From Candidatus Cloacimonadota bacterium (GTDB lineage: Bacteria > Cloacimonadota > Cloacimonadia > G963667145), in the NCBI GenBank assembly GCA_963667255.1, contig OY762940.1, positions 448,001-512,000 of the forward strand: a stretch of DNA of 64,000 nt. Direction: 5' to 3'. The first letter of the stretch is position 1. Every line of letters starts with the position of its first letter. Positions 9,992 to 64,000 of this stretch are shown one piece after another. A model generated the notes under the pieces. It was not told the origin of the DNA, made no database searches, and saw only the letters and a list, made by a program, of their open reading frames with translations. The position numbers and the translations under genes are program-made.

Positions 9992-9993
9992 TA

Positions 9994-31357: not shown

Positions 31358-31735
31358 ATGAAAGAGTTAATCAAGACAGGCAAAGCACCTGCGGCTATCG
31401 GTCCGTATTCGCAAGCAACCAAAGTCGGAAACCTTTTGTTTGTGTCGGGGCAATTGCCTCTTGACCCAAAAACAATGGAATTTGTCGGAGACGACATCGT
31501 CTCTCAAACCGAGCAATCTCTAAAAAATCTGATTGCCATTGTTGAGGCTGCCGGCTCCAGTGTAGAGAAGATTGCCAAGGTGAACATCTTTCTTGCCGAC
31601 ATCAAAGATTTTGCAGCTATGAACGAAGTTTACGCCAAGTTCTTCACCGCAAATCCTCCGGCTCGTGCAGCGGTGGAGGTTGCCAATTTGCCCAAATACG
31701 CCAAGGTGGAGATAGAGGCTGTCGCTGAATGTTAA
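31358..31735 (+). CDS. ridA: RidA family enamine/imine deaminase
   Basis: APAAIGPYSQA, SGQLP, FAAMNEVY, PPARAAVEV, VEIEA. Confidence 0.93.
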   Translation: MKELIKTGKAPAAIGPYSQATKVGNLLFVSGQLPLDPKTMEFVGDDIVSQTEQSLKNLIAIVEAAGSSVEKIAKVNIFLADIKDFAAMNEVYAKFFTANPPARAAVEVANLPKYAKVEIEAVAEC

Positions 31736-36190: not shown

Positions 36191-36201
36191 TTTTATTAAA
36201 T

Positions 36202-43326: not shown

Positions 43327-43878
43327 ATTTGCCCAAAAAAAATAAAAAAAGCTAAAAATCAAAAATTTCTTAGAAAATTCTTCTCATTAAATTCCAATAA
43401 GAAACAAAAAAACATAAAAAAGTGATATTTTTTTATTATAGCATCTATTTCTTTGCATTTCAATAAAATAACAAGATATGAACTAAAATTTGAAAAATGA
43501 AAATTTTTCCGTTTTTCAGTGAAAAAATATGTGTAGAAGTGTTCTTTATTTCCTTTTTTTTGTGTATTTTATATGTTTTTGTGGTTGATAAGTTGTGTTT
43601 TTTTTGTGCTTTTTAGTTTTCTTGAATTTTCTATTTTATTGAATTTTGGTAAAATAAGGGATGTTGGCAAAAGAGTAAAAAAAGTTTGACAAAAACTACA
43701 CAAAAGACCAGTTTGGGTAGCATAGGGGTGTTGTGTATACACGCAAAATGAAGGAAATTGAAGGAATAATGAATTTAATTGTATTGAAAATCAGTAAATT
43801 AGAAAAATATAGAAATAGTATTGAATACAAAAAAAATCGCTTTAACTTGTGCAATTTTAAAGAGAAGGAGATTTTGTG

Positions 43879-46800
43879 ATGGAAGCTTGTAGAAATTCAA
43901 GGGCTGTGAAGAGAGTTTTAATAGCTTTATGCATGCTGATGTCGCTTTTCGTCGGTTGTACCACCGTGGTAGAAGAGTCGATATCCAGCCCCGTTGCTTC
44001 GGCAACTCAAGCGGTATACGAAGACAAAATCGTTATAGAGTGGAGTAAGGTCTCGGGCGTTTCAGAATACGAAGTCTACAGGTCTTCCACAAATTCCGAC
44101 AATTTTTCGAGTGACTATAAATCTATAGGTTCTGTCACAACTACCAAATATGAGGATTCCTATTCTTCTCTTTGCCCAGGGAAAGCTTATTACTATAAAG
44201 TCCGCTCTGTAAAGGGTTCTACTAAATCTACACCGAGGAGCTCTCCCGCAGTGGGATGGTTAAAAATACCAACACTGAGTAATATATCGGTTTCCAAAGG
44301 AACGGACACAAGTAAAATAAGCCTTACTTGGAAAGTTCCAGACAGGATAAAAACAGGTGCTGAGTTAGGATTGTCGGGATATGCCGTTATTTATTATTCT
44401 GAAAATTCCAGTGATGTGACCAGTGGCAGCACTATAAACATAACTCTTGCGAGCTTAAAAAACAGCGAAGGCAAAGAAATAAAAGACAATATAAAGAAGG
44501 GGCAGGTTTATTATTTTAGAACTCAAATTTTTGTTGTGGATGAAGGAACAAAATCTTCTGAGAAAACTCCCCTTGACTCAGGATGGACAAAAGTTTCTTC
44601 TCCTGTAAATGTTTATGCTACAAAAGGGGAGTATAGTGACAAGATAATTGTGACATGGGATAAAGTTTATGGAGTATCAGGGTATAAACTCTATAGTAGT
44701 ACGGATGGAGGATCAAATTATAGTAATTTTGCAGAAGCTGCTTCAGGAACTACGGTTTTCACCAATAGATCATATTCGTGGACAGGAGCTAGTCTTGGGA
44801 CAGAGTATAGGTTTAAAGTCACTTGTGTAAAAGACAACGATGAGACAGGGATTAATAGTGGGATTGACAGTAAAGACACTAGCGGTGTATATAATAACTT
44901 GGGATATACAAAATACGAAGCCCCAACCATAATAGGAATAACCACGGACTCTGTTGACTTTGTCAGAGTAACGGTGAAAACAACAAAAGCTCCGAGCTCA
45001 GGAGAAGATTTAAAAGTCCAATTGTATAGAAGAGAACAAGGAGCTACAACAATTAAGGAGTTAAGCAATTCCGTAGGTACTGTAGTTTCTTCTGGAGGAT
45101 ATGGGATTGACACACTGGAAGATAATACAAGTAGCGGACTTATTCCAGGTAAAAAATACTACTATTGTGCTATTGTTTACAGAAATAGTAGTGGTTCTCA
45201 ATTAGGCAAATCCAATTATTCAACGGAACAAGTGGGTTGGTGTACTATTAGTGCTCCATCTTCCGTAAGTGTGACCAAGGGGTATGATACTCTTTTGGTT
45301 AAGTGGACAAAAGTTATAAATTCACAATACTATTATGTTCTTCGCAAAGAGGGCATTAATGGTTCTTGGTCAAAACTTCCGATAGTAACTGCGGATACGA
45401 CCCTAGACCAAATGTCTTTGATACAGACTAAATATGATATAGAGACAGGCAAGGTTTACTATTACAAGGTGAGGAGTAAAAACGATATAGAGTCAGCCGA
45501 TTCTAATTCTGATTCAGGCTGGATTAAGATTGCGACACCTTCAAGCTTTACCTCGAAAGGGATTTATGAGAACTATGTAGAGTTGGTATGGACAGCGGTA
45601 ACGAATGCAAAAGAATATATTCTGTCTCGAAAAATTTATGGAAGCTCGTCAGCATATGTCGCTATTGACACTGTTTCCAATGTTACGACTTATCAAGATA
45701 CAGGCTTGGCACAGGCAACACAATATTTGTATCAAATCCAAACTGTTAGTAATGTTCGTAACAGTTCTGGAGAGTATGAGAAATCCGACAAATTGACAAT
45801 CTCTTCTACAGCTAAAACTGCGTTGAAAGTTCCTGTCTTAGATTCTGTTTCAAGCAATCTATCAGACAGAATTAATATGTATTGGAAATTAGTTTCAGGA
45901 CAAACATACAAAATATATTACATGGATGTGAACGGAGGCTGGGTAAACATAGGGACATCAACGGACTCTACGATAATCCTTACTCCTGCCGGAAATTCTT
46001 TGGTGTATGGTAGAGTTTATACATTTGCTATTACGACAACGAAAGGAGATGCCTGGGGAGAATCTGACAAGAGCAATCCTCTTGAAGGATATATGAGACT
46101 CGACTCTGCTTACAATTTGAGTGCGACAAGAGACGAATATTCTGATAGGATTAATCTTACATGGAAATCGGTTGCTAATACCGGAGCTACAGAATACTAT
46201 GTGTATAGGACGACTACAACAGAAAGTGCGAACTTCACTTATCTTGCCAAGGTTGACACTAACAGTAGCACAGAGCACTCTTATAGCGACCAATCTAGTT
46301 CATTGGATGGTGACGCTAAATATTTGTATAAAGTTAGGACCTTCAGGTCTGATTTTAATACTAAACAACCTAACGATATAAGATATTCTAATGTGGATAC
46401 AGGATGGCTGATGATACAGCCCCCCACATTCACAAGAGCTAGCATAGGGACATCATCGGACACCATAAGTCTTTTCTTTGCAAAAAACAGCAGTGGCAAG
46501 TATAACATCTATTACAAGACGAATAGTAACGGAACTGCAACATTGTTCAAAACGATAACAGATTCTGTAACTAAAAGCTTGGGTTCTAATAATTTGCAGT
46601 ATAATTTGGGAGCTTACAAAACATCTACAGCTACCTCCAATGTGATAAATGTTGATACAGGGCAAGTTTTGTATTTTGCTATGACAACAGTTGGGACAAG
46701 TCGTGAATCAGGAAAAACCCCTTTTAAACCCGGGTTTACCAAATTGCCTACACCTACTTTCAATACGGGAGCGACAAAAGGTTCTATAAGCAAAATAGAT

Positions 46801-49800
46801 ATAGGGTGGAATAAAATAACAGCAGGGGAAGACAATATCTCTTATCAAATGATAAGGACGACAACTCAAAACGAAGATACAACTTTTAGTGTTAGCAATA
46901 ATGGAACTTGCACAGATATCAGCAATTTAAGAGAAGGATTTAAGTATACCTATAGAGTTCAGGCTATAAATGCGACAGCTCAGACACAAGCCGCTGCAAC
47001 TTACGGGTCAAGCACGGATTTGTCAGGAACAAAATCTTTATGGTCAGATACTACTACAGGTTATAGCAAGTTGCTTCCGGTAAATAATTTTATGGCTACC
47101 GGACCTAACGGGACTTCTGTGGAGGACAAGGTTACTCTCACATGGACAAACAAAGGGGCACGGATATATTGTTCTGTTTTGAGGTCTGAGCAATCTACGA
47201 TAAAGTGGGATACTATCTATTCAGGATTGGTAAATGTGGGCACATATCCCGATGCTACGGCAGCAGACAATGTCTTATACTATTATAAATTGAGAATAGC
47301 CAGTGAAGACTATCCGACAATTTTTGCCACATGTGACAGTGTTTCGGGTTATGTAAAACCTTCTCCACCAAAAAATGTGGACGCTTCAAAAGCTGCATAT
47401 TTATCTAAGATAGTTGTATCTTGGAGTAAGGTTGGCTTAGCTTCTTCTTATCAGATTTGTCGTTATACGGAATCCAACGATTCTGTAGTCCTTACCAAGG
47501 ATATTTCAGAATTAACGACTACTAACGACACGGTATTCTTTAGCGATGACCAAGTAGAGAAAGGAAATTATTATACATATAAAGTAAGGGGTATCCTTTC
47601 TGACAATAGTCAAACGGAATACAGTGACATTACCACAACCTACAAAAAAGAGAAAGCTACTGGTTATACTAAAATACCGGCGATAACAAATATAGTTGCG
47701 ACAGATGGGAAATACGAAGACAGCGTTATAGTTACTTGGGACTCTCTCCCTGTGGCAGAAACGTATTTGGTGCAAAGGTCAAAAGTCGGCGGCACGAGTT
47801 CTTCCGATACGATACAACAGACAGTTACCACCAATAGACTGGTCGACAAAAAAGGCGGAACATTTATAGATGGTAAGAAATATGAATATCGTGTGGCCGC
47901 ACAAAAAGGGACAAATCTGTCAAATGATTGGAAGGCTTTGTATGATGTAGGGTATCTGTGGTTATCAGGTCCTACCGGAGTGGCTGCAACTAAAGATTTG
48001 CAAGACACTATAGTTATAACTTGGGATTTTTTAACTACCGTATCCGATGTTACGGAATACCAAGTATGGGAACAAGCAAGAGAAGATGGAGCTACGGATA
48101 CTGAACTTAAGGCGGGGCTGTCTTCCACAACAAAAAGATGGGTTTATACAGTTCCTACCAATGATAAAGGAGCAATTCTAAAGTTCTATGTTAAAGCAGT
48201 TAGCACCGCTTTTGGAACGAGTGCAAAGAGTGCAGTAGCTTCCGGATATACCAGATTGGATACAATTACCAAATTTACAGCTTCCGGCAGTTCTACAGAG
48301 AGATCTATAAATCTTTCTTGGATTTCTTCCAACAATTCGGACAGCACAGTCTTGTATAGAAAGAGCGGTTCTTCGTGGGTTAATTTTGCTACTTTGCCCT
48401 CTAATACGATTAGTTGCAAAGATACCAATTTGGTAGTTGGGAAAAGATATTATTATAGAGCACAAGCCAAGAGAAGTGATGCTACAACAGGAACCACAAT
48501 TTATTCTCCATATGTTTATGCAGACACTTTACTGACTATACCAACTATAGCTTTCGATACTATTACCAAGGGAGATTATCTTTCTTATGTGAAACTTACT
48601 TGGAAGGGATTGGCATCCGGAGATGAACTCAGATTCCAAATTTTTGTGTATTCCAATGTCACTGACTATAATAGTGGGAATAATGTTTATGATACTCTGG
48701 CTGTCGAGGAGAACGGTAAAACTTATTATGAATTTAAGCATAGCTCTGTTACGGCTTCGAGCGGAAAATTCTTAACAGGGACAAAGTATTATTACAAAAT
48801 CAGAACACAGACGACATCCGGTGGAGTATGGTCTTCTTTGACTTTGCCAGTGACAGGGAAACCGTATTATGGATGGACAAAAACACCGTCTCCGACAATA
48901 AAAAGTGTCAGTAAAGATTCTGTAGGAGCTATTTATCTAAAATGGAAAGCAAATAGTTCGGCAACTAAGTTTCAAGTATTCAGAAACTTCACCTATCCTG
49001 GTAAAGAAGAGACATTGAATATTTCGGTTAATGATACGGCATTAAGAGATGTTGAGAAATTGTTCACAGGGCACGAATATAGCTATAAGATTAGAGCAAT
49101 TAACGAAAGTTGTGAAAATGATACTTCGGAATGGACTTCCTCAGTGATAGGAATAGCTAAACTCTTGTCTCCGGAAGATGTGTCGGTTACCAAAGGAACA
49201 GTCGTAGACACCATAGTGGTCACTTGGAGAATGCCTAAGAATATTTCGGACCAAAGCTATGGAGCTACAAAATATACCGTTTACAAGAGCGAGACAAAAG
49301 ATGCCAGTAGTATGTCATATGTGGGAGACACTACGCTGAAAGATTGGAACTCAAGCAATAATAGCACAGTTTCGTTTAGAGATGTATTGAGCAGCAAAGA
49401 ACTTGGGAAGTTGTATTACTACGGGCTGAAAGCTGCCGTGGGAGCAGAAGTTTCAGGGTTTAGTGCGTTTGACTCCGGATGGGCTAAGATCCCGGCACCT
49501 ACTTTCACTGCCTACACTGCCCAAAGTGGGGGATATAATCTAAAGTCAGACAGTATCAGAATAACTTGGAGTGACCCTTGCTCGTTGAACAATCCCAGCA
49601 CAACTTATGAATTAGAGTATAAGATAGGAGATGCTGTTGGAATTACTGTCTCTAATATTCCAGCTGCCACAAAAGACACGACATGGTTTGTAGATACTCT
49701 TAATCGCTACAAAAAGACGACAATAAGAATTCGTTCCAAGAGAAGCACATTTGGTGAATCCGTTTGGTCTGAATGGATAGAAACTTATACAGCAATGCCG

Positions 49801-52800
49801 ACACCAGAAATCCCTAAGGTAATAACCGGATTGTCAACAGAGTTGAAAAAAGTAAAAATCAACTATGTTTGCCCTAACGATTGGGTAGATACTATTTGCT
49901 TCTATCGAGAGACAGCCGGCTCACCAAATACATCTACTTTGGTATATAAGATTGCTAACGCAGGTGTAGGGAAATCAAGCAGTTTTTATGACACTACGAG
50001 TGTTTGTTTAGCTGTGAAATATGCTTATAAAGTAAGATTTTACAAGACAATAACAAATTTCTCCAGTGCCAGCGACACTGTTTGTATAACAATTCCTGTA
50101 TTACCTCCAGACAATTTAGTCGCTACACAAGGAACTTATGAGGATAAGATTATCCTTACTTGGGATGGAGTGCAAGCAGGCTCTGGAGTTACGATTAGCT
50201 ACAATGTATATGTAGATAGTAACTCAACAGCAGAATTTACAAATTATGCCAATACCACTGCGAGCACGGGATTGAGGATTACGGGGAATAGTTCGCCTAC
50301 CAAAAATCCGGAATACGAAGTTCCTTATGGGACAACGCTCCCGAATAATGCTACGGAGAAGTGGTTTAATTTGGTTTTGGGTAGAAACTATACATTTGCA
50401 GTTACCACAAATATGACGACAGCTTTTGTTAATTCATCCAGCAATTTGTCCTCTATATCGAGTATGACAAAGGGATATGCAAGGATTTCCAGACCCAAAG
50501 TGATTTCTGCAAGTAAAGGCACTGATGAAGACATAATAACAGTAAAATGGAGAGCCTCTGACGCCTACAAGCATGATGCTCTTGTCTCTTATCAAATCTA
50601 TCGTCTAAATCAAGAGACGGGCGTTATGGATTCTTCTTTGGTAATGAAAGCTTCTGATCTTACCAAAAATGGCGATACGCTTACTTTGGTGCAAAGATCG
50701 TCTGCAAATAATTTGGCAGAAAAAGTTAAATATTCATACAGGATAAAAGCCTTGATGACCGCTTCAGGAGAAGTTACTACTGCACATTCGTCATTGATAA
50801 GCACGGATTCAGTTGTTGGTTGGTTGGCTCTTTCTTCTCCCAAGAACTTTACCGCTAGTGATGGACTTTCAGCAGACTCTATCTATTTGAAGTGGAGCAA
50901 TCCAAGCAAACTCACTACACAAGTCTACGCTTGCGATAGTTTGGTAGGATTGTGGAATAACCAGATAATTACTGTTGTAGATTCTCATTATTCCGTAAGC
51001 ACAAGTAATGAAAAAGACCAAGGAGTTTACAAGTATTACGGAGCCAAATTCTATCATCCTGTTTTTGGTGTTTCCAGTGTTTCTTCTACTTGTCAAGATT
51101 CAGGATATGCACTATTCTCAGGAATTACAATTAAATCCATAAGTATGGGAGAATATTTAGATACCATAAAGATAGTTTGGGACACATTTAGAAATGCTAC
51201 AAGCTATGGAGTGCAATATAGGGAAAAGGGTTCATCCGTTTGGAATACCAAAGACGACATTATTGGAAACAAATACAGTATTTCGGGAATTAATGGAGTT
51301 AGCAGAGGAATTTTGCATTATGTTAGAGTGAGAGCTGCCAATGGAATAGTTAATCGTTCCGCTAACGAAGGCTATGGGACAGTAGATACAGGATTTACTC
51401 AATTGGACTCCGTGGGCGGATTTTCTGCTACCAAGGGAGATTTGCCAGATACGATTAGACTTAACTGGTCTCGAGTGCTTAATGCAGAGTATTATTCCGT
51501 TTACAGATCGGAAAATAATTCTAACTTCATATTAATAGATACGACAGCTAATCTTGAATACGGAGATACAACCAAGAATTTGACTTATGGGAAAACATAT
51601 TACTATAAGGTGCTTGGAGTAAACAATTTGACGGTAAATTTAGCAGAAAAATACAAGAACTATTCGCCTGTTGATACCGGTTGGATGGATATCCCTGCAC
51701 CGCAAAATGTTACAGCTACCAAGGGAACATATGATAACAAAGTTGTAATTTCTTGGACTCCGATAAATAGGGTAGAAGGCTATGTTATTGACACAGCGAG
51801 AAGTAATGATGAAAATCTCTATGCGAAAATAGATACTGTTCTTCCGACAAGCCAAGATGAATACCATGTTTATGTTAACGAGATACCAGGTGGAAAGCTG
51901 GAAAGAGGTGTTAGGTATTTCTTCAAGGTCAGAGCTTTTACCTCTCAGAGAATGAACACGATTGCCAAAGCTAACCAAGACAACGGCTATATCGCATTGA
52001 ACGCCCCTGAAAATATTCAAGCTTCTAAGGGGACAAGTGCAGATACTATCACCCTTTCGTTCAAGGTTTCTAATAATTTAAACACTCTTGAAAACTATGA
52101 AATTCAGAGAAAATCAAAGAGCACGGGTGATACATCTGATGTAAGCTTTGATGCAAATACTTTCAATGTTTCAGGAGGCATTATAACTATCTATGATGTA
52201 AACAGCTTACAGCGAAGCAAAGGTTATATTTACACATACAGAGTTAAATGCAAAAAAGGGCAGATAGAGTCCGGATGGAGTTCATGGAGTGACTACGGCT
52301 GGATAAATCTTACTCCGCTTACAATAACTGTTGCCAATGAACAAGATTCTTTGATGACCGATTCTATCAAGATTTCATGGAACAAAGGTGCACAACAATT
52401 TAGCCAAGTAAACCAACTTAAAATCTATTATGACACTATGAGTGTCCCGACGAATGGGTGGCAATCCGTTTTAGTTCTGAGTAAAGCTACAGAGTTGAAC
52501 AAGGGCTATTTGATGATTAACACTCAAGAAAACACTAATTTCTTGGCTGGGACTATGTATTATTTCAGAGCAAAGAGTTGCTATTATGAAGATGCCATAG
52601 AAATCTCTTCTGCCTTTAGTGCTTTGGATTCCGGTTGGTATAAATTGCGAGCTCCGACCATAACCTATTCCTCAATAGGAGAGAGTGCCGACACAATAAC
52701 TATTAGGTGGAACGCTCAGAGCGATTTGCCTCACAGCAGTATTTCAGATATGAAGTATGTTGTCTCTCGTGGTTCTGTGTCAGAGTATAAAGTTTTATCT

Positions 52801-55800: not shown

Positions 55801-58800
55801 AAAGCAGGTGTTTATGATGGGACTGATGGGGCTATTGAGGCATCACAAGGAATTTCTGAGGACTCTATTGTAGTTACTTGGTCGCACCCGAGTGAAAGGA
55901 AATATGTAAATTCTGTAAGATATGAGTGGGTTGAGTATGATGTTTCTACAGGGTTGGCTCAAGATTCTGCTGTAGTTTCCGATACATTTGTTATAAGATC
56001 TGCTCAATCTAAAGATGTTGGTCAACCAGTTAAAAACGGATATAAGTACAAGTATAGAATTAGGAAAAAGTTTTATGATGAGAATGGAGCATTATATACG
56101 ACATCTGGCTTGTCGATAAATTCTGGAACTGGTTGGGCAAATTTGGAGAAACCTTCTATTAAGCTTACTGTAACGAGCGATGGAGATTTTGTTATTTCTC
56201 AACAAAAAAATAACAATATTAATGCTTTCAGAGTTTATAAAAATATTAATGGTGGCGAGAACTCATCAGAAATAGAAGTAGCTGCCGGTGGTTATTATAT
56301 CGATTCCGTAATTTATAATAAGTATAACATTGGTAAAAAGGTAAAGTATACCATCAGAACAATTAATAAGACCTTTGATTTGGAATCAGCTCTTTCCGAC
56401 CCTGTTGATACTTTCTATATGTTGTATAGCCCAAAATATGTGAAAGCTTCTCAAAGTGATTATACAGACAAAATAGTATTAAAATGGCATTGGGGAACAG
56501 CAAGGACTGCTTTGGTCGATAGTTTTGTTGTGGATAGATACAATCTCTCCACTGGAGCAAAGGAAAAGCAATACAAATTTAGTGGCAGCTATGATTCCAA
56601 ATTGAGTTATAGCGGAAGCGGAGTGATAGGCACGGATACATGTAGCTATGAAGACAACGCGGATATAAAGCAAGGTGTATCTTATTTATATAGTGTAAAA
56701 TCTCTAAGGGCAAATCCGAGTGGAATAAGAATCTCAACAGATAGTGGCTCTGGGACAGGACACGCTAAATTCTCTGCACCTACCAATGTAAGTGCAACAG
56801 ATAATAAGAGTGATGTAGTTTTGAAGTGGGATTCTATCAGAAATCAAGGGACAGTTACCAACTTCTTCATTTTCTATAGCCCTACTCAAAATGGGTCGTA
56901 TAGCAAGTTGACAAAAACAGGATCTGTTGCTAAGCCGAACGACACTACCTTTACGGATGATGAAATCCCTCAGGGAACTATTCGTTGGTATAAGGTAGCT
57001 GCTTTCAACAGTGTCAGCGATACCGGAGTTAAGTCTGTCGCAGTTAGAGGATATGCGTTGATGGATCCTATGGCCGGAGTAACATGCTGGAAAGGCGTAA
57101 ATGCCGATACCATAAAGGTTACTTGGACAAAATTGTCAGTATATCAAAGTTACTACATTGAGTGGAGCATTAGCAAAGAATTAGGCTCAGATGGTCGTTT
57201 TGTTAGTAGGTTAGGGAATGTTGGGGCTTATGAAAATAGCACTTATAGCAAAGATTCTCTTTTCATCCCTATTTCCGCAGACTCTCTCAGAGGCAGGAAA
57301 ATATACATTAAACTTTGGGCTCAAAATCAATATGGTGGCTCAGAACCTGTCTTGGACAGCGGATATACCAAACTTAAACCCCCTTCTAGTTTCTCTGTGA
57401 GCAAGGGAACAACATTAGATTCTATAAAAGTAAGTTTTTCTCCTCGGACAGGCACTAATGCGGCAAGCTACAATGTATATCTCTCCACTACTAAGAGCAA
57501 GTCAACATCAGCAAATGCAGAGATAGCCATTACAGGGTATAAGGGACATGATACCACTATTGCGGTGGAATCTAATAAGAAGGGACATTATTATTACGGG
57601 AGTGTTCAGGCTGTAAGCGGATTGGACAACGCTTCTTCGGAATTGTCAGTAGATAGTGGATACAGTCGCATACCTATAGTTGCCGGAATCTATTTGGACT
57701 CATTGACTTCGGGAGATATTGCAGTTAGTTGGACACCCGTTGCGATAGGTGGAGACAGTGTAAATTACAATATTTATCGCTCAGCAAATGATGGCAACTT
57801 TATACAAATAGCTTCCGGATACTATGCAACTCTAACCTCAGGGAAAATAAAATACACAGATAGTGAATGTATCCCGGGAGATAAATGCACATACTATTTG
57901 GTAAGCAAGGCATGGCAAAGACCCAATACCAATGCAAGAGAAGTTATTTTGTCTGACACCTCGGCACATGCATCGACTTATGCTCAAATAGGAATGGTAA
58001 GCAATTTTATGCAAGATTCTACGGCTTATTCTGATAGCAAAGTCAATCTTATGTGGAAGCAAAGGGGAGATATAGATACTTATTATATTTACAGAAGTTC
58101 TTTTGTTGATAGGGACAATGCTAAAGAGATAATAGTAGCGGTTACGGATGGTAATTACTACTATTCAGATGGCTCAGATTCTATCTCTACACAGAGCGGA
58201 ATGCTTTGGCATTATTGGATTAGAGCGAGGAAAAACAGCAACTTCGGAATATGGACTCCAAATACTACGGAAGGTTTGTTGGCATATACTAAGCCAAGAA
58301 AGACAACGATTGTAAGTGCAAGTCAGGGGGTTTCTTCCGACACGATCAGAGTGGTCTGGAATAAGATTAATTATGTAAGTAATTATGTTTTGCAATACAG
58401 AGTGGAAAATGCAGCTACATGGAGCAATATCACAGGAATAGAGGATACATTCTATACTTTGAGGAGAAGTGCTCAAAATCTGCAAGATGGCGTAAAATAT
58501 GATTTTAGAGTTTATTCTGTAATTAATATAGGTGCTCCGTCTCCTCGTGGAGGAAGCAATAGTTATTACGGGAAGAAAGTGGTTTCTGATACCAGTGAGA
58601 TTCTGAAAGGGTTTGTAAAATTTGAAAAGGTAAGCAATTTTTACTTCCAAAATTCTCCTGATAGTATAAAGAGTGATACAATAAAGCTTTACTGGAACAA
58701 AATTACAGCTTCGGGCATAATATATAGGATTTACAGAAATACAGCCAGTGATGCTACAACAGCTTCAGAAATTGTTGCACTAACAGATACTAATGTTTAT

Positions 58801-61800
58801 TACGATGTGAAAGGCTCCGGTGAAACGCATCCGCAAGGAGGTAAGAGATACTATTATTGGATTACAGCCGAAAAGAATTCTCTAAGTGGAACTAAGAGTG
58901 AGCAACAAGCTGTAACGATAATATCTGGCACTACTGTTGGGACTGAACATTTTGCTTGGTGCTTGCTGGATGCTCCCAAGAATGGATGGGCTTCTGGAAA
59001 GATGAAAGCGAATGGAGAAGACAACAATCCTGACCAGACATATAGCGACTCTATCGTAATAAAGTGGGAGAAAGTCCAAAACGCCACAGCTTATTGTATT
59101 CAACAGAAAAAAGATACTACAGGCACAATTTTTGGGAATATGACAGGAGCGACAAATATTACAGATACTCAATTCGTTTGGAATAGGTCCACGGACAATC
59201 AAAAAGGGTATAAGTATAAGTTTAGGGTTACTGCTAAGAACGATTTATGTGGAAGTTCTAATCCTGTTTATTCTACAGAATTTACCGGATTTGCAAAGTT
59301 GTCTGCACCCAGACAAGTGACAGCATTCCAAAAAGATAATCAAACGGGAATTTATCTCAGTTGGGCACACATTGAGGGAGCAACAAAATATATAGTTTAC
59401 CAAACGGAAAACTTATCTGCCGGCTTTAGCAAATTGTATGAAGTTTCCAATAAGGGTGGAGCGGTAGTTACTATAGACACTTCCGATTTGACGATGTATC
59501 CAGGGACGAGAAGATGGTATCTCATTAGAGCATTTAATTCTGCGACTGGTGGCTCTGACTCCTCTACGATTGTGGATACAGTTTGCCCTATTTTGCCTCC
59601 AGAATCTTTGTCTGCTACAAAAGGGACGAGCACAAGTGGCATTACTATAACTTGGGCGTTGAACGACAGAACAAAAGGAGTTGACGGATTTTATATTTAC
59701 CGTGTGTCTCCGGGGGCAGCCAGTGGAGCAGGATTTACGGTTTCCGATACTGTAGGCAAGGTAACCTCATTCAACCAATCCAATGGACAAGCCAGCTTCA
59801 CGGACCAATTGGGAGCCTCTGTGAAGGGAGGAACGGATACTACGAGAAGTGGTGTGAAATATTTGTATGCTATCAGAACCTACAAAGGTGATGTTTATTC
59901 CGACTATACTCCGGTAAGTAGTCGAGATACTGGCTGGATAGCGTTGCCGACGGTAACTGGGTTGACTGTTCCTGTGATAAAAGCAGGGGAAAGCTTTGCT
60001 CTTAAATGGAACGACAGCAAGAATATCTATAAAGATGTCAGTTATGTGTTTAAGAGGATTAAATACAAAAAAGGGAATTTTGATACTACATACCAATATC
60101 AGTATGATGGCGTTATAACGAGTGATACTTTTGCAATTGATAACAGCAATCTTGAGAATGGAATGGTTTATCAGTATTTTGTAAAAGCGTTCAATAGTTC
60201 ATATGTTAATTATAACACCGAGAGTGCGAAAGTTTGGGCTGAATCTGGGATCTCTTCTCACAGAGGTATGATTTCTACCAATTGGTCAGATGTCTCCTTT
60301 ACCGGTCGGAAGTTCGCAACTCCGACTATAAATGTCCTGAAAAATGGAGATTCTCTTAGAGTTGATTCTATCTATGTTAGATGGGCAGAAAATTCTAATG
60401 CAACGAGTTTCCTTTTCCAAATAGACACTATTTCAACCTTTGGCAGTCCTCTATTGGTAAATAAGGAAGTGGCTAATACTAACAGAACGATGGACAGTTT
60501 GTATTACACGCTAAATTCTGGATTGTATAAAACACAAGACTATTTCTTCAGGATGAAAATAAAGAATCAAGAGTACACGGACGCTATTTGGGATTCTTTA
60601 ACTTCCGAATGGTCAACTGCCGATAGTGGTTGGTCTAAATTAATTCCTCCGATGGGAATAAGTGCAAGTAGAACTATAACAGATTCTATCAGAGTGAGTT
60701 GGACAGGATGGAGTTGGAAAAATCCGGTAACCTATTTGGTAAAATATGTAGATGCAAATAGTCAACCTGGAGATGTCTCTACGGCAAAGGATTCAGTTCG
60801 TTATAGATCAGAATTCAGCAAAGGAGAGAATAGCATAACAGTAACTACCACAAATTCTAAATATGGAAATTCCAATCCTTCGGCAGTAGTGAAAGGGATA
60901 GGCAAGCAACCAGCTCCGCAATATGTTTCCGGTCAAAGACCAAGCCAAGGCACATATTTGGATAGTATTTGTTTTGAAATAGATGAAGCAAGCCAAAATA
61001 TAAGCAGTCAAGTAGTGAACTATAAAATCTATATTAGTGATGATAAAAACTCGGATGCGATTTCTTCCGATGACCCTGACAAGGGAGAGTTCATTACTTC
61101 TGATACGGATGTTGTCAGGTTGAAGTTGAACAAGGGATTTTATTCTAGTCAATATGGAACAAAACTTTACATTAGAGTTTCTTGGGCAGTGGGACAAGGT
61201 GCCACTATCTATAGTGAAAAGAGTGTAATAGATTCTGGCTGGACCAAACTGCAAGCTCCTACGAATTTACGCAAAAAGACTTTGGATTCTCCTCAAAACA
61301 CTTATGCCACGGGGATAATTTGGGCTTCCAGTGCTAACTCGGACAGCACTGTTATTTGGAGAAGATATCCGAACACAGTGGGAGACCAATATGTTGCTAT
61401 CGATACTGTCTCCAGTTCAGTTAACTACTATGTAGATAGCTTGCCGATAGCAAATAGGACTAAGACTTACCAATATGCAGTGCAAGCTGTGAATCAGTTG
61501 GATAATTCCGAATCTGCTCTTTCTACAGGCTTCTCAACCTTTGTTTCTTCTATTTACAATATTAGTAATTTTACAGCTACCAAGGGAACGAAGGCGGACA
61601 CTATCGTCTTCTCTTGGACAGGGAATTTGGATTCTACATTTGTAATCCAAGTGGATACTGTAAATCCTGTAAACTCTGTTAGTCCTAATGCGGCAATAAG
61701 AAATTTGAAAGCCAGTGATGGCAAAAAATGGCAACTATCCGACAATAATTGTCAAAGTGGTAGATGGTATTACTTCAAAATTTATTTGGAGGGTGATGAG

Positions 61801-64000
61801 AATATAGCTACAAATCCTACATATTTTGTTACCGACAGTGGATATGCGAAGATGGGCGAGATTAATCGTGCGTGGATTACGGTAAAGAACGATACGAGCT
61901 TGATTAGTTTGAACATAAAGGGTAGCAATGTAGGCGATTCCGCATATAGCGAATTTGATGCTTCGAGTGCCTTGAGCAATACTTGGATTTCCAAGGTGTA
62001 TCTGAAAAAATACAACATACAAACCGATCTTTACAGTAGCTTGGGAACTATGACATCAAGCTCATCAGTTTATCGTGATACTATAAGAAGTAATTTTGGT
62101 AGTATTTACAAATATAGATTGGAATTTGTAAACAGGATAGAACCGGGCAAAACTTTGGATTTCAGCACATTTACTACACTGAGGAAACCTTCTGCGGTTG
62201 AATGGAAACCGTCCACCTTGGCTACCAAGAACATCCAAATAGGAGTAACCAGTCCTGGGACAAATGGGACAATAGACTCTATTCTTTTGTATAGAGTTGC
62301 TCCCAATAAATTGAGCGAGAACGACACTATTATAGTTGCTTACCAAACAGGATTAAATCCAAATACTATTACAGACACTACAGGTTTGATACAAGGATTG
62401 TTCTATACTTACACAGCCGCTTATTACAATAGCACAACGGGACTCTCCAGAGTGAGCACATCTAAGACTAAGGCTTATGCCAAATTGGAAGCTCCACAGT
62501 TTATTTTCGTGGGGAATGGAGTTAGTAAAGACACGATTTCGTTGGTATGGAACAAGATAGATGGTGCTGTAAACGGATATTTCTTGTGTCGCGACACCTC
62601 TGTGGCAGGGGATTTTAGTTCTTACGACACTGTTTATATTGCATCTGATAGCAAGGATACTACATATCCGGATCTTACTGCTTATGAGCAATGTAAGAAA
62701 GTTTACTATAGAGTGGTAGCAAGAGGATATGACACTACTTCGGTTCTTACTGAGTGCAATGTAGGAGCGGGAAGCAGAGCATACAGAGGCGTGAATGATT
62801 TAGTGGGAATAAATATGCCACAAAAGACAGTCACAGCGTTCCAATTCACTATACCGAGTTCGGTTACTTTGGACGATACCTATGAGACTACTAATTTCAA
62901 AAAAGGCATCAAATTGATGCGCTATGACCTTGTGGACAGCATTAATAGTGTGGATAATAGATTTATAGTTCCGCCTGCCTCTGTGAATATAACTAGATTG
63001 AATAATACTTATACGATTAAAGATAATAGTGCTCCTAAATTGAAAAATCTTTATTTCTATAAAGTTATTTTGAAAGTTTCTGGCAGTGGTTCTGTGACAG
63101 ATCCGTCCAATATGGCAAAAGGTTGGTTGGCTCCGCCTGCAGTGGAGAGCGTAGTGGCTACTTCTGGCAAATTGGATACAGTGATAGTTACTTGGAACAA
63201 AATAGCTAAATCTACAATAGAGAATGACACGGTTAACTCTTATATTATCGCCAGATGTGGAAGTGATAAATCCTTGATAGAAAAGGTTGAGGTCAAAGGC
63301 TCTGATTCCTTATTCTACGATTATTCAGGAAATATTTTTAATAATGAATTCCAACCAGGCAAAGACTATAAGTATTATGTTTTGGCAAAAGTTACTATAA
63401 AAGAGGATACTGTAGCTACGACGGATGTTAAGAATTGTGAAATCACGATGACATCCGATACGAGCAATATTGCCAGTGGTTGGGCAGAGATGAAGCCTTT
63501 GGGCAATGCTAAAATAACAGTAGACACAGGCGATATAAGAGGTATTTCCAAAACTTATCCATCTGTCACCAAAACAGATACCACGCTGGTATTTAGCGTA
63601 GATATGAGTGCGAAAGAGTATCAAAAATATTCTATTGCTTACAGGAAATTGTATGGCTCAGCAAATCAGTTTGATAGTGTGGGATATATTGTAGGACAAA
63701 ATATAACTGTTTTCAGAGACACAATAACCAAGGCAGGTCAAATTTTGCACTACAGATTCAGATTGGGTAACGACCATCTGTCCGAAAATTATACCGATAC
63801 TTTGGCTTATACTAAATTGCGTCCTGCTGCAGCCATAGAGAAGTCAGCGACAGAGAAAAGCTATGTAAAAATCAAGGTTACTTTGCCTGCAAATAACGCC
63901 TCGGTTGATTCCATTTTGGTGCTCAAGAGCACTACAGCAGGTGTAGCTCAAGATACTATTATCTATGCCGGCACCAGTGCATCGTTTATTCTTTTGACTG
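43879..64000 (+). CDS. Giant surface lipoprotein (>=6,707 aa, 3' end beyond the window) made of tandem fibronectin-type-III-like repeats
   Basis: SD AGGAG 43866-43870, ATG 43879, upstream in-frame stop at 43858. Signal MEACRNSRAVKRVLIALCMLMSLFVG-C27. Every frame +1 segment translated was open, the last codons read IYAGTSASFILLT, and the ORF track has no frame +1 ORF here, which implies no stop. Recurrent ~100-aa unit A(T/S)xGxYxDxIxxxW...YxVYR...YxD...GxxYYYxVxA...G(W/Y)xxLxxP. Confidence 0.93.
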   Translation, partial: MEACRNSRAVKRVLIALCMLMSLFVGCTTVVEESISSPVASATQAVYEDKIVIEWSKVSGVSEYEVYRSSTNSDNFSSDYKSIGSVTTTKYEDSYSSLCPGKAYYYKVRSVKGSTKSTPRSSPAVGWLKIPTLSNISVSKGTDTSKISLTWKVPDRIKTGAELGLSGYAVIYYSENSSDVTSGSTINITLASLKNSEGKEIKDNIKKGQVYYFRTQIFVVDEGTKSSEKTPLDSGWTKVSSPVNVYATKGEYSDKIIVTWDKVYGVSGYKLYSSTDGGSNYSNFAEAASGTTVFTNRSYSWTGASLGTEYRFKVTCVKDNDETGINSGIDSKDTSGVYNNLGYTKYEAPTIIGITTDSVDFVRVTVKTTKAPSSGEDLKVQLYRREQGATTIKELSNSVGTVVSSGGYGIDTLEDNTSSGLIPGKKYYYCAIVYRNSSGSQLGKSNYSTEQVGWCTISAPSSVSVTKGYDTLLVKWTKVINSQYYYVLRKEGINGSWSKLPIVTADTTLDQMSLIQTKYDIETGKVYYYKVRSKNDIESADSNSDSGWIKIATPSSFTSKGIYENYVELVWTAVTNAKEYILSRKIYGSSSAYVAIDTVSNVTTYQDTGLAQATQYLYQIQTVSNVRNSSGEYEKSDKLTISSTAKTALKVPVLDSVSSNLSDRINMYWKLVSGQTYKIYYMDVNGGWVNIGTSTDSTIILTPAGNSLVYGRVYTFAITTTKGDAWGESDKSNPLEGYMRLDSAYNLSATRDEYSDRINLTWKSVANTGATEYYVYRTTTTESANFTYLAKVDTNSSTEHSYSDQSSSLDGDAKYLYKVRTFRSDFNTKQPNDIRYSNVDTGWLMIQPPTFTRASIGTSSDTISLFFAKNSSGKYNIYYKTNSNGTATLFKTITDSVTKSLGSNNLQYNLGAYKTSTATSNVINVDTGQVLYFAMTTVGTSRESGKTPFKPGFTKLPTPTFNTGATKGSISKIDIGWNKITAGEDNISYQMIRTTTQNEDTTFSVSNNGTCTDISNLREGFKYTYRVQAINATAQTQAAATYGSSTDLSGTKSLWSDTTTGYSKLLPVNNFMATGPNGTSVEDKVTLTWTNKGARIYCSVLRSEQSTIKWDTIYSGLVNVGTYPDATAADNVLYYYKLRIASEDYPTIFATCDSVSGYVKPSPPKNVDASKAAYLSKIVVSWSKVGLASSYQICRYTESNDSVVLTKDISELTTTNDTVFFSDDQVEKGNYYTYKVRGILSDNSQTEYSDITTTYKKEKATGYTKIPAITNIVATDGKYEDSVIVTWDSLPVAETYLVQRSKVGGTSSSDTIQQTVTTNRLVDKKGGTFIDGKKYEYRVAAQKGTNLSNDWKALYDVGYLWLSGPTGVAATKDLQDTIVITWDFLTTVSDVTEYQVWEQAREDGATDTELKAGLSSTTKRWVYTVPTNDKGAILKFYVKAVSTAFGTSAKSAVASGYTRLDTITKFTASGSSTERSINLSWISSNNSDSTVLYRKSGSSWVNFATLPSNTISCKDTNLVVGKRYYYRAQAKRSDATTGTTIYSPYVYADTLLTIPTIAFDTITKGDYLSYVKLTWKGLASGDELRFQIFVYSNVTDYNSGNNVYDTLAVEENGKTYYEFKHSSVTASSGKFLTGTKYYYKIRTQTTSGGVWSSLTLPVTGKPYYGWTKTPSPTIKSVSKDSVGAIYLKWKANSSATKFQVFRNFTYPGKEETLNISVNDTALRDVEKLFTGHEYSYKIRAINESCENDTSEWTSSVIGIAKLLSPEDVSVTKGTVVDTIVVTWRMPKNISDQSYGATKYTVYKSETKDASSMSYVGDTTLKDWNSSNNSTVSFRDVLSSKELGKLYYYGLKAAVGAEVSGFSAFDSGWAKIPAPTFTAYTAQSGGYNLKSDSIRITWSDPCSLNNPSTTYELEYKIGDAVGITVSNIPAATKDTTWFVDTLNRYKKTTIRIRSKRSTFGESVWSEWIETYTAMPTPEIPKVITGLSTELKKVKINYVCPNDWVDTICFYRETAGSPNTSTLVYKIANAGVGKSSSFYDTTSVCLAVKYAYKVRFYKTITNFSSASDTVCITIPVLPPDNLVATQGTYEDKIILTWDGVQAGSGVTISYNVYVDSNSTAEFTNYANTTASTGLRITGNSSPTKNPEYEVPYGTTLPNNATEKWFNLVLGRNYTFAVTTNMTTAFVNSSSNLSSISSMTKGYARISRPKVISASKGTDEDIITVKWRASDAYKHDALVSYQIYRLNQETGVMDSSLVMKASDLTKNGDTLTLVQRSSANNLAEKVKYSYRIKALMTASGEVTTAHSSLISTDSVVGWLALSSPKNFTASDGLSADSIYLKWSNPSKLTTQVYACDSLVGLWNNQIITVVDSHYSVSTSNEKDQGVYKYYGAKFYHPVFGVSSVSSTCQDSGYALFSGITIKSISMGEYLDTIKIVWDTFRNATSYGVQYREKGSSVWNTKDDIIGNKYSISGINGVSRGILHYVRVRAANGIVNRSANEGYGTVDTGFTQLDSVGGFSATKGDLPDTIRLNWSRVLNAEYYSVYRSENNSNFILIDTTANLEYGDTTKNLTYGKTYYYKVLGVNNLTVNLAEKYKNYSPVDTGWMDIPAPQNVTATKGTYDNKVVISWTPINRVEGYVIDTARSNDENLYAKIDTVLPTSQDEYHVYVNEIPGGKLERGVRYFFKVRAFTSQRMNTIAKANQDNGYIALNAPENIQASKGTSADTITLSFKVSNNLNTLENYEIQRKSKSTGDTSDVSFDANTFNVSGGIITIYDVNSLQRSKGYIYTYRVKCKKGQIESGWSSWSDYGWINLTPLTITVANEQDSLMTDSIKISWNKGAQQFSQVNQLKIYYDTMSVPTNGWQSVLVLSKATELNKGYLMINTQENTNFLAGTMYYFRAKSCYYEDAIEISSAFSALDSGWYKLRAPTITYSSIGESADTITIRWNAQSDLPHSSISDMKYVVSRGSVSEYKVLSNNQTYFYDTTGVEEGVSFTYTVTAKHPKYLNSAASSSAIGYAKLIAPVLMGVTAGGDSITVKWAYSMSKLSSIDSFYLYRKESYSGAEGTPIGRIQVNTSKTTYSYSDKNCELGKDYYYYLRAYKSGLKLSDTSKVGVAALDLIAPSMYSVSRGAHTNKIVVEWTGTQYSEQYVLFRSTSATFGTKDTIDTVASLPTIYTDDNKGRGLTDGTVYYYKVVAKRGNHLSSESGYMGGYTKLLKPSIDSLSQNQEKVYLKWNKNGGNSSSARVMVGEDVQVATIKDSASLLVDSTTDLVGYFSNSNAWFVKGKEYYAKVKTYTRETRVMKSGGSSETIEIVSDYSEVKKFFTNISTPSLTVTSGKLDTLLIQWNRIDADVVSDITVQWTEKGFGSSTDTMTTNIVNNGNDSIGNIKVAYSGEATLQPGVKYTFRIMFKRGAITSAWSDEKKGWTKLPAPTNFSASKGDYDDSIRFTWNNYRENTDTLKDNTYQYVIYYYDGSNYQAMTGGTITDKKKFYGITLPMDGIVTRGVMTKFRIKGETNPALEISSQSTNLSSDSGHTRLMIPISGGTATDDLENQIKISWNALISSASDISAYKNLKVVYQLERRKSGDAFMGNTLASIDSLQQESYTDTKSLDPRYVYYYRVRFYSEVYFDRYSNSSKSSSPWYVIADSGSIAINPPTIKAHEDGAFYTDRVELDVQRSVGSDSAYLYREENSSGTFTLIDTIVFSDGVTGQGAYLYYKDSLRIVPGSCYSYYAIALNGARKSDKGAEFKSYTKLKAPASLSVSDGLYDDRVIAKWDTVSRAEGYCIWVYKEGNETTVVDSVEIGNQDSTINLVKGTILKNIVIGQIYTFKIGAWNNTAIYNSRKIYSDKTSDDGYLRFTLPSYVTLSQDSTDFVKLQIGYTSSGFSLYVFRSADSSVVKGTQSNWGEYKKISVSTDYDSTKNEYICKDVLSSTSGIAGVRYAYMVQIYKSGMVKAISDTFKTYLKNETGKKYGWGKAGVYDGTDGAIEASQGISEDSIVVTWSHPSERKYVNSVRYEWVEYDVSTGLAQDSAVVSDTFVIRSAQSKDVGQPVKNGYKYKYRIRKKFYDENGALYTTSGLSINSGTGWANLEKPSIKLTVTSDGDFVISQQKNNNINAFRVYKNINGGENSSEIEVAAGGYYIDSVIYNKYNIGKKVKYTIRTINKTFDLESALSDPVDTFYMLYSPKYVKASQSDYTDKIVLKWHWGTARTALVDSFVVDRYNLSTGAKEKQYKFSGSYDSKLSYSGSGVIGTDTCSYEDNADIKQGVSYLYSVKSLRANPSGIRISTDSGSGTGHAKFSAPTNVSATDNKSDVVLKWDSIRNQGTVTNFFIFYSPTQNGSYSKLTKTGSVAKPNDTTFTDDEIPQGTIRWYKVAAFNSVSDTGVKSVAVRGYALMDPMAGVTCWKGVNADTIKVTWTKLSVYQSYYIEWSISKELGSDGRFVSRLGNVGAYENSTYSKDSLFIPISADSLRGRKIYIKLWAQNQYGGSEPVLDSGYTKLKPPSSFSVSKGTTLDSIKVSFSPRTGTNAASYNVYLSTTKSKSTSANAEIAITGYKGHDTTIAVESNKKGHYYYGSVQAVSGLDNASSELSVDSGYSRIPIVAGIYLDSLTSGDIAVSWTPVAIGGDSVNYNIYRSANDGNFIQIASGYYATLTSGKIKYTDSECIPGDKCTYYLVSKAWQRPNTNAREVILSDTSAHASTYAQIGMVSNFMQDSTAYSDSKVNLMWKQRGDIDTYYIYRSSFVDRDNAKEIIVAVTDGNYYYSDGSDSISTQSGMLWHYWIRARKNSNFGIWTPNTTEGLLAYTKPRKTTIVSASQGVSSDTIRVVWNKINYVSNYVLQYRVENAATWSNITGIEDTFYTLRRSAQNLQDGVKYDFRVYSVINIGAPSPRGGSNSYYGKKVVSDTSEILKGFVKFEKVSNFYFQNSPDSIKSDTIKLYWNKITASGIIYRIYRNTASDATTASEIVALTDTNVYYDVKGSGETHPQGGKRYYYWITAEKNSLSGTKSEQQAVTIISGTTVGTEHFAWCLLDAPKNGWASGKMKANGEDNNPDQTYSDSIVIKWEKVQNATAYCIQQKKDTTGTIFGNMTGATNITDTQFVWNRSTDNQKGYKYKFRVTAKNDLCGSSNPVYSTEFTGFAKLSAPRQVTAFQKDNQTGIYLSWAHIEGATKYIVYQTENLSAGFSKLYEVSNKGGAVVTIDTSDLTMYPGTRRWYLIRAFNSATGGSDSSTIVDTVCPILPPESLSATKGTSTSGITITWALNDRTKGVDGFYIYRVSPGAASGAGFTVSDTVGKVTSFNQSNGQASFTDQLGASVKGGTDTTRSGVKYLYAIRTYKGDVYSDYTPVSSRDTGWIALPTVTGLTVPVIKAGESFALKWNDSKNIYKDVSYVFKRIKYKKGNFDTTYQYQYDGVITSDTFAIDNSNLENGMVYQYFVKAFNSSYVNYNTESAKVWAESGISSHRGMISTNWSDVSFTGRKFATPTINVLKNGDSLRVDSIYVRWAENSNATSFLFQIDTISTFGSPLLVNKEVANTNRTMDSLYYTLNSGLYKTQDYFFRMKIKNQEYTDAIWDSLTSEWSTADSGWSKLIPPMGISASRTITDSIRVSWTGWSWKNPVTYLVKYVDANSQPGDVSTAKDSVRYRSEFSKGENSITVTTTNSKYGNSNPSAVVKGIGKQPAPQYVSGQRPSQGTYLDSICFEIDEASQNISSQVVNYKIYISDDKNSDAISSDDPDKGEFITSDTDVVRLKLNKGFYSSQYGTKLYIRVSWAVGQGATIYSEKSVIDSGWTKLQAPTNLRKKTLDSPQNTYATGIIWASSANSDSTVIWRRYPNTVGDQYVAIDTVSSSVNYYVDSLPIANRTKTYQYAVQAVNQLDNSESALSTGFSTFVSSIYNISNFTATKGTKADTIVFSWTGNLDSTFVIQVDTVNPVNSVSPNAAIRNLKASDGKKWQLSDNNCQSGRWYYFKIYLEGDENIATNPTYFVTDSGYAKMGEINRAWITVKNDTSLISLNIKGSNVGDSAYSEFDASSALSNTWISKVYLKKYNIQTDLYSSLGTMTSSSSVYRDTIRSNFGSIYKYRLEFVNRIEPGKTLDFSTFTTLRKPSAVEWKPSTLATKNIQIGVTSPGTNGTIDSILLYRVAPNKLSENDTIIVAYQTGLNPNTITDTTGLIQGLFYTYTAAYYNSTTGLSRVSTSKTKAYAKLEAPQFIFVGNGVSKDTISLVWNKIDGAVNGYFLCRDTSVAGDFSSYDTVYIASDSKDTTYPDLTAYEQCKKVYYRVVARGYDTTSVLTECNVGAGSRAYRGVNDLVGINMPQKTVTAFQFTIPSSVTLDDTYETTNFKKGIKLMRYDLVDSINSVDNRFIVPPASVNITRLNNTYTIKDNSAPKLKNLYFYKVILKVSGSGSVTDPSNMAKGWLAPPAVESVVATSGKLDTVIVTWNKIAKSTIENDTVNSYIIARCGSDKSLIEKVEVKGSDSLFYDYSGNIFNNEFQPGKDYKYYVLAKVTIKEDTVATTDVKNCEITMTSDTSNIASGWAEMKPLGNAKITVDTGDIRGISKTYPSVTKTDTTLVFSVDMSAKEYQKYSIAYRKLYGSANQFDSVGYIVGQNITVFRDTITKAGQILHYRFRLGNDHLSENYTDTLAYTKLRPAAAIEKSATEKSYVKIKVTLPANNASVDSILVLKSTTAGVAQDTIIYAGTSASFILLT

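Follow-up and report, generated by a model that had tools for sequence, protein, structure and literature searches.

What kind of protein is encoded by a reading frame that opens 20 kb before the end of a 64,000-nucleotide stretch of bacterial DNA and never closes within it? The stretch (the window) covers positions 448,001 to 512,000 of contig OY762940.1 (C1) of GCA_963667255.1 (G000), a Candidatus Cloacimonadota genome of 1,587,896 bases in one contig that is 98.9% complete. An original prediction, made from the window alone, described the frame, here gene A, as a giant lipid-anchored protein built of fibronectin type III (FN3) modules. We conclude, with a probability of roughly 60%, that its product is a lipid-anchored, glycosylated surface stalk presenting a binding tip. 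For this protein and its two paralogues, B and C (the giants), we infer surface location, glycans, expression and oligomeric state.

Gene A is open without a stop from a GTG at 43876 and an ATG at 43879 through the window end (6708 amino acids (aa) from the GTG, 3'-open). The unclosed +1 frame was confirmed by its reading, its translation and its closure in the genome. Extended to its stop codon at G000:C1:525049, the gene spans G000:C1:491879-525049 and encodes 11,056 aa counted from the ATG, with a mature mass of 1.20 MDa. LFVG-C27 and all seven peptides quoted in the original prediction are present in the protein (aa 40, 101, 126, 247, 1274, 2082 and 3435). The start Met is retained in 6/6 A orthologues. 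A consensus promoter scan of the + strand gave no result, and an NCBIfam scan of the protein named no family.

A frame this long could be an assembly artefact or an unexpressed relic, an explanation that is largely refuted and that we consider very improbable. In-frame stops and frameshifts were looked for in a second assembly. A Logan contig (run X2 record 9, 58,155 bases) spans gene A from ahead of its start to past its stop with 0 mismatched letters and 0 gaps, and run X1 shows a single substitution and no indel. Run X3, with its few short and dispersed pieces, was left aside. Because X1 and X2 are one sample, maybe the source of the genome itself, they supply a second assembly and not a second organism. 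Gene A is intact in 6/6 genomes of the genus, with 11,047-11,104 aa stop to stop in the other five. Purifying selection is indicated by the ratio of nonsynonymous to synonymous substitution rates (dN/dS) between A of G000 and of G001, which is ~0.10 for the array and ~0.16 for the tail; dS is close to saturation. What speaks for an artefact or relic is a split B in two genomes, G001 and G002, together with an A-type fragment pair on contigs of 198 kb. The G002 split, however, coincides with a contig end/start junction, and B there ends ~240 aa early.

Most of the protein is an array of FN3 modules. With Pfam fn3, the first two 2,700-aa pieces of A reach 118 and 87 bits (cut-off 25), and aa 5401-11056 give no match. 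A self-built profile, iterated on the giant proteins, resolves 79 modules over aa 27-8449 with a mean of 107 aa. It finds 73 of the 79 at an independent E-value <1e-3 and 0 domains in nine shuffled copies. Within the window 64 modules begin, close to the roughly 60 domains first estimated. AlphaFold2 (AF2), suggested earlier for module fragments, was run on modules 59-63, 5 of the 79, with 53 aligned sequences. The result was five beta-sandwiches with a predicted local distance difference test score (pLDDT) of 90.7 and a predicted template-modelling score of 0.72. The best structure matches of this model are tandem FN3 fragments (Z 14-15), and single domains lie at a root-mean-square deviation of 1.9-2.3 A from fibronectin FN3. 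Judged by this model, the gene A product has a tandem seven-strand FN3 sandwich fold, and the FN3 assignment stands on Pfam scores, predicted fold and structure matches alike. In fibronectin each domain adds 3.5 nm, and 4.4 nm can be estimated from the 240 nm and 52 repeats of GhpA, a giant protein of Aureispira. At these values the extended array would measure 280-350 nm. The 79 modules plus the 2,600-aa tail would together reach roughly 300 nm or more, so the rod of 200 nm proposed originally would be too short.

The number and order of the modules are frozen. The A orthologues share 45-71% identity with A of G000, and their longest array indel is 10 aa (5/5). For 77 of the 79 A modules, the best partner in B sits at the equal index. 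Between A and C, the offset is -1 for 39 best partners and 0 for 6; C has 78 tiles versus 79 in A, and the module missing from C could not be located as a single gap of 40 aa or more. Within A itself the best non-self module pair averages 30% identity, with a maximum of 40%. The 33 kb of gene A contain 0 repeated 20-mers and 4 repeated 18-mers, in agreement with the initial remark that near-identical DNA repeats are absent. The accompanying suggestion of an old, maintained array is borne out by orthologue conservation, module register, the indel limit and dN/dS. Internal expansion has left its sole trace in three five-module blocks (59-63, 64-68 and 69-73). A protein-wide five-module period was rejected, as it is confined to modules 59-73; for modules 1-58, 1088/5000 permutations score as high. 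That six species and a gene triplication have left the number and order of 79 dissimilar modules unchanged points to constraint. Either reach is under selection or the chains pack side by side in register; the data fit both, and either would be a property that variable-length stalks lack.

B and C are two further frames above 10,000 aa in G000, and the three genes make up 6.3% of its genome. The proposed search for homologues in related genomes recovered A, B and C in all six genus genomes. B has 10,911-11,005 aa in the three other genomes where it is not split, and C has 9,942-10,196 aa in the other five. In two trees (18 rows), A, B and C each unite all six species; the module tree supports the A group weakly (52/74), a quick tail tree with 99. 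An EamA-family gene is the upstream neighbour of A in 6/6 genomes. A three-module profile run on 232 phylum genomes is strong (E<1e-113) only in the six genus genomes; its matches in 14 others, at E 1e-8 to 3e-21, are to frames of 237-2,219 aa. Full-length giants were not found in the 226 other phylum genomes, in a survey that scored nine candidates per genome and included many fragmented genomes. Fragments 55-75% identical to the giants exist in further assemblies, which indicates more family members. The building blocks are older than the giants, since multi-FN3 proteins are widespread (36,803 matches at E<=0.001) and tail-like units occur in 19/35 other class genomes. In one relative (G012), a 6,262-aa protein combines FN3 and tail-like units with an end resembling the type IX C-terminal domain (CTD). 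A literature search with partial coverage found no description of the giants. A paper on Antarctic Cloacimonadota reports halomucin-like and 3,755-aa scaffoldin-like proteins, and its available text contains neither 'fibronectin' nor 'giant' (PMC8542988).

Beyond the window the protein ends in a distinct tip, as had been anticipated: seven beta-helix units lie between the modules and the stop. These mutually related units fill the last 2,600 aa and were counted by profile, a tail self-BLAST having returned no rows. One folded unit is modelled as a beta-helix (pLDDT 85). In Foldseek its closest structures are 3n6z and the beta-helix of streptococcal IgA1 proteases (6xja, 7jgj), with a best E of 4e-6 and a template-modelling (TM) score of 0.49. 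It also falls with GLUG/M26-N clusters in the structure Atlas, a weak match because the recognition score is under threshold. The M26 IgA1 protease identity was rejected for A: only the beta-helix fold matches, A, B and C of G000 contain 0 HExxH motifs, and no M26 catalytic domain is present. B likewise has seven tail units and C has four, and the tips are the least conserved part of the giants.

C of G000 is tipped by Listeria-Bacteroides repeats and a GH19 domain (Pfam GH19 111 bits, cut-off 25.5), which indicates outward-facing cargo on the giant scaffold. The closest solved relatives of this GH19 are chitinases. The Glu of its HET motif and a second Glu align with 7v92, and we take these two to be the catalytic residues. 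Many of its 79 longer homologues have the type IX tail PF18962, and it resembles Bacteroidota proteins with such tails. GH19 was found in 2/41 genomes. The second copy lies in G002 on a separate 5,034-aa lipoprotein (G002:C1:793663-808767) with ~40 Listeria-Bacteroides repeats and an internal GH19, so that the cassette capping C of G000 sits there on another scaffold.

Could the tip serve a hook with which an epibiont or predator catches prey or host, as in GhpA of Aureispira or the Omnitrophota giants? The genome is small for its class (genus 1.5-1.6 Mb, class 1.4-4.4 Mb), weak fold-search matches to GhpA stem fragments exist (TM 0.24-0.26), and GhpA, in the available part of its description, is likewise a fixed-length and probably glycosylated immunoglobulin (Ig) array. 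Pfam and NCBIfam scans, however, detected no domain of lytic, toxin or protease type in either A or B, no secretin was found in G000, and the GH19 resembles chitinases. We regard a hook as improbable.

Anchoring and export were considered next to this. Protein A has a basic n-region, a hydrophobic h-region and a lipobox-like motif, and is predicted to be a lipoprotein lipidated at Cys27. The lipoprotein signal first proposed is upheld by LFVG-C27 and by a regular-expression test in which a Cys follows the hydrophobic stretch in 18/18 A, B and C homologues. The six residues after the Cys carry a net charge of -2 in A of G000, and the charge is negative in 16/18 giants and zero in 2. Net negative charge after the Cys is the definition of the surface-lipoprotein export signal (10.64898/2026.10.03.756453). 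G000 has the markers of a diderm: two Omp85 genes (including BamA), LpxC, LolA, LptD (LptD_2 match, E 3e-41) and TolC-type proteins.

A secretion system of type IX (T9SS) may occur in Cloacimonadota, according to the available part of one report (PMC11285876). SprA and PorV were found in 0/6 genus genomes versus 10/10 other class genomes. FlgD_ig-type tails gave 0-1 sub-cut-off matches per genus genome versus 54-150 in relatives, and no C-terminal sorting domain family lies in the last 900 aa of A. A PF18962 profile search gave no signal in any control either and is uninformative. The identity of A as a T9SS substrate was rejected on SprA/PorV and the missing sorting domain. No secretin was found in G000, so a type IV pilus, type II secretion system or type III secretion system channel of that family is lacking. 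A type I secretion system (T1SS) adhesin of the RTX or bacterial Ig-like (BIg) type was rejected too, given the signal-II peptide and no RTX/BIg family in Pfam or NCBIfam scans. Two candidate exporters fared no better. The upstream MacAB-type operon was discarded as dedicated exporter, being adjacent to A in just 2/6 genomes, within the fetched stretches, and the five-gene operon G000:C1:783069-792369 has a lipoprotein that is strong in only 3/6 genus genomes with this query. By analogy, export through LptD one ~100-aa domain at a time is likely the most economical route. The giants would then be an extreme case for surface-lipoprotein export: 1.2 MDa with an N-terminal lipid, and no T9SS or secretin detected.

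The same absences also speak for a periplasmic scaffold, in which the giants would never cross the outer membrane and would act as a titin-like strut or ruler for cell shape or size. LolA is encoded, the frozen register suits a structural lattice, and the D-[ST]-[AILVMT] motif described below is, in the available part of a 2025 review, typical of periplasmic proteins (PMC12871550). Against a scaffold stand the tip of C, with its chitinase and Listeria-Bacteroides repeats, the beta-helix units in a relative's protein with a CTD-like tail, the lack of a peptidoglycan-binding domain in Pfam scans and the acidic residues after the Cys. We judge the scaffold unlikely.

D-[ST]-[AILVMT] is the Bacteroidota O-glycosylation motif, whose transferase the 2025 review, in its available part, calls undiscovered (PMC12871550). 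It occurs 201 times in A, 238 in B and 274 in C, 3.8-4.4x the expected number (A 3.8x), and in other G000 open reading frames of >=250 aa, called mechanically and in part spurious, at 1.02x. Among X-[ST]-[AILVMT] tripeptides Asp alone is enriched (3.9x; next residue 1.17x). After D-[ST] the giants favour I (3.3x), L (2.5x) and V (2.0x), while D/E/K/R fall to 0.06-0.24x. The motif Asp is conserved in 87.5% of comparisons versus 59.5% for other Asp, and the motif Ser/Thr in 84.7% versus 51.1% in like context without Asp. Sites fall at many module positions, the commonest being the strand start D-S-I-x-L-x-W (118/675). In A, 73/79 modules carry the motif, modules 1-3 have none and density is higher distally. 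Across 149 other multi-FN3 proteins the motif has a median of 1.01x, and 11 exceed 2x. Seven of these 11 are from the genus or 55-75% identical to its giants; the rest are P0008, P0025, P0072 and P0152. A purely structural origin of the motif was rejected on this foreign-array control and on the motif in unrelated folds. P0008, P0025 and P0152 are 23-25% identical to the giants with the motif at 4.1-4.4x, and P0025 has a CTD-like tail.

The giants are therefore likely O-glycosylated, as far as sequence can indicate. A single TMEM260-like gene (GT117) in G000 (C1:966325-968667, E 5.6e-42) is a candidate O-mannosyltransferase. Human TMEM260 O-mannosylates B-strands of Ig-like IPT domains, according to the available part of one study (PMC10214176). 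Other glycosylation genes in G000 are PMT_2-like, 14 glycosyltransferase family 2 matches and Wzx-like. If correct, this carpet of motifs would extend Bacteroidota-type O-glycosylation to another phylum of the Fibrobacterota-Chlorobiota-Bacteroidota (FCB) group, and the single gene per genome would name a candidate for the transferase said to be undiscovered in what is available of the review (PMC12871550).

So many sites might instead make a protective brush, a thick, surface-anchored, glycan-rich layer against phages, grazers, competitors or host defences in which the tips are minor. Each chain has ~200-270 motif sites, denser distally, and the tips are poorly conserved. The net charge of A runs from +66 (G000) through -95 (G001) to -401 ... 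-689 (G002-G005) with DnaE constant at -6 to -17, as expected of a bulk surface polymer; it may be surface-specific acidification, perhaps with salinity. Yet a brush needs no fixed order of 79 different modules, and seven retained tip units and three paralogues are kept in a genome of 1.5-1.6 Mb. On balance we find the brush unlikely.

The surface stalk that we favour would be made in five steps. The protein would leave the cytoplasm by Sec and be lipidated at Cys27 (step 1). Its ~200 D-[ST]-hydrophobic sites would be O-mannosylated in the periplasm, with the TMEM260-like enzyme as candidate (step 2). As a surface lipoprotein it would cross the outer membrane by way of the LptD translocon, domain by domain (step 3). 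The glycans would stiffen the rod and protect it from proteases (step 4), and the beta-helix tip, ~300 nm away from the cell, would bind a host, a partner cell or a particle (step 5). A, B and C would be three stalks of the same reach, each with its own tip, in place of the type IX-secreted surface proteins of class relatives. An unlikely and more far-reaching version is that A, B and C, or copies of each, bundle in register. In the resulting glycan-coated appendage a single polypeptide would set the length, as a titin-like ruler. With type IX secretion lost from the lineage, each would be exported as a 1.2-MDa lipoprotein through the lipopolysaccharide translocon, and the TMEM260-family enzyme would be the Bacteroidota transferase.

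Several observations weigh against the surface stalk. The acidic signal is weak, and a predicted periplasmic efflux-adaptor lipoprotein of G000 has one too. The LptD route is known for Bacteroidota only, with substrates to ~50 A across, from a preprint. The motif reaches just 1.3x in signal-peptide proteins of G000 (a heuristic set), 0.85x in 32 CTD-type proteins of other Cloacimonadia genera and 0.43x in a 2,335-aa FN3 lipoprotein of G004 (G004:C1:1168579-1175586). A search for the TMEM260-like gene found it in 26/26 Cloacimonadia; of the 14 controls, only Bacteroides thetaiotaomicron has it. The enzyme does not vary together with the motif, because the gene is in 20/20 genomes outside the genus and yet the CTD-type proteins are unenriched. 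The 26/26 count and the 0.85x and 1.3x values are why we call glycosylation likely and the enzyme a candidate. Bacteroidota O-glycoproteins are mostly periplasmic or membrane proteins in the available part of the review (PMC12871550), so the motif gives no location for the giants. Finally, A lacks a recognisable ligand-binding or catalytic domain, and the GH19 tip is on paralogue C in just 1/6 genomes.

Table 1. Positions of gene A, its parts and associated loci. Plain numbers are window positions; those with C1 are positions in the full G000 contig.
Feature	Position	Strand	Basis or remark
LptA/LptC-like protein and next ABC ATPase (LptB inferred by position)	8873..10740	+	context for proposed export
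Lgt, prolipoprotein diacylglyceryl transferase (first lipidation step)	31729..32508	+	E 9e-74
EamA-family transporter gene	42348..43268	+	synteny marker
AGGAGA, Shine-Dalgarno-like	43866..43871	+	7 bases 5' of ATG 43879
Gene A, first 6,707 aa	43879..64000	+	frame and translation; runs on past window
Signal peptide II, aa 1-26 and Cys27 (LFVG-C27)	43879..43959	+	predicted lipidation
FN3 modules 1-64 of 79	43957..64000	+	profile tiling; D-[ST]-[AILVMT] motifs except in modules 1-3
Stretch most conserved among the three paralogues, aa 5421-5760	60139..61158	+	16 sequences share 40 invariant columns
Modules 59-63, first of three five-module blocks	62191..63825	+	AF2: five tandem FN3 domains
Gene A, remainder	modules 64-79 up to G000:C1:517225, followed by seven GLUG/M26-N-type beta-helix units as far as stop C1:525049	+	
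Paralogue B	G000:C1:526057-558840	+	10,927 aa; 1 kb downstream of A
Paralogue C	G000:C1:377030-410779	-	11,249 aa

Other loci were noted along the way. G004 has three extra lipoproteins of 3,371-3,692 aa between A and B (G004:C1:690546-725466; motif 2.7-4.1x). With the 2,335-aa lipoprotein above they make four, and a scan of two of the four showed canonical fn3 arrays that end in DUF285 repeats. Signal-peptide proteins of 766-821 aa flank the giants in G003-G005. In G000, a 1,614-aa lipoprotein (C1:228754-233598) with ~14 SdrD_B/CarboxypepD_reg domains, a DUF285 end and 15 motif sites is, by its predicted domains, a smaller stalk-and-tip lipoprotein. A free-standing GLUG beta-helix protein of 1,558 aa with 29 motif sites (5x) lies in C1:173129-182658, together with an overlapping GLUG pair of 326 and 949 aa that may be one split gene. 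The operon at C1:783069-792369 consists of five consecutive unannotated genes with secreted or barrel-like products. Three are motif-rich (13, 8 and 9 sites), the last has a weak outer-membrane-protein barrel match, and the lipoprotein is strong elsewhere only in G001 and G002. The A-B gap (C1:525220-525500) holds short palindromic repeats, presumably REP-like, that recur in ~19 similar places of the genome, and contigs break there. On the - strand of the window, 33699-37320 holds, one after the other, two DNA-methyltransferase-like genes and a phospholipase-D-type nuclease-like gene, which from their translations we take to be probably a restriction-modification island; no counterpart of its first gene turned up in the stretches fetched from relatives. 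At C1:65395-70740 a 1,760-aa protein has a start that we take to resemble a Ser/Thr kinase.

How does A compare with known systems, as far as the available parts of the cited papers describe them? Like A, GhpA of Aureispira is a giant protein of the FCB group with a distal adhesin module (10.1101/2024.01.29.577165). It has 52 slightly varying Ig-like domains, probably O-glycosylated in each, and a uniform length of 240 nm. GhpA has 5,898 aa, is secreted by T9SS, has a C-terminal anchor and an N-terminal tip and is heptameric, whereas A has 11,056 aa, an N-terminal signal-II Cys and a C-terminal tip in a genome without detected T9SS. By this analogy A would work most like GhpA inverted, with a lipid anchor replacing the T9SS anchor.

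SiiE and other giant T1SS adhesins share a long beta-sandwich spacer (53 BIg domains, 595 kDa) but are T1SS substrates with Ca2+-bound domains (PMC6272769, PMC5466336); A is twice the size, is built of FN3 modules behind a Sec lipoprotein signal and gives no RTX/BIg match. Periscope proteins also project a functional domain on a rod-like repeat stalk, with near-identical repeats that change in number (PMC9704523), whereas the modules of A are ~30% identical and fixed in number. Membership in that class, which needs near-identical repeats of variable number, was rejected with a best pair of 40%, no repeated 20-mer and indels of <=10 aa. GLUG/Peptidase_M26_N proteins (3n6z; IgA1 proteases 6xja, 7jgj) share the fold of the tail unit; A differs in having seven tandem units on 79 FN3 modules, with no HExxH and no M26 catalytic domain.

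Giant1-5 of Apilactobacillus kunkeei resemble A-C as paralogous giant surface proteins with beta-solenoid ends that fill ~6% of a 1.5-Mb genome, but they are Gram-positive, of 3,000-8,000 aa, with an N-terminal solenoid and diversified by intragenic recombination (PMC12863079). The Omnitrophota giants are likewise encoded by giant genes of uncultivated small-genome bacteria but have C39/S8 peptidase domains and lie beside type II secretion loci (10.1101/2023.11.21.568195); the available main text of that paper contains 'Cloacimon' and 'lipoprotein' 0 times. A thus lies outside the T9SS, T1SS, Periscope and M26 families. Giant repeat adhesins are already known; the giants described here differ from them in the proposed export with a lipid anchor, the frozen order of modules and the carpet of motifs.

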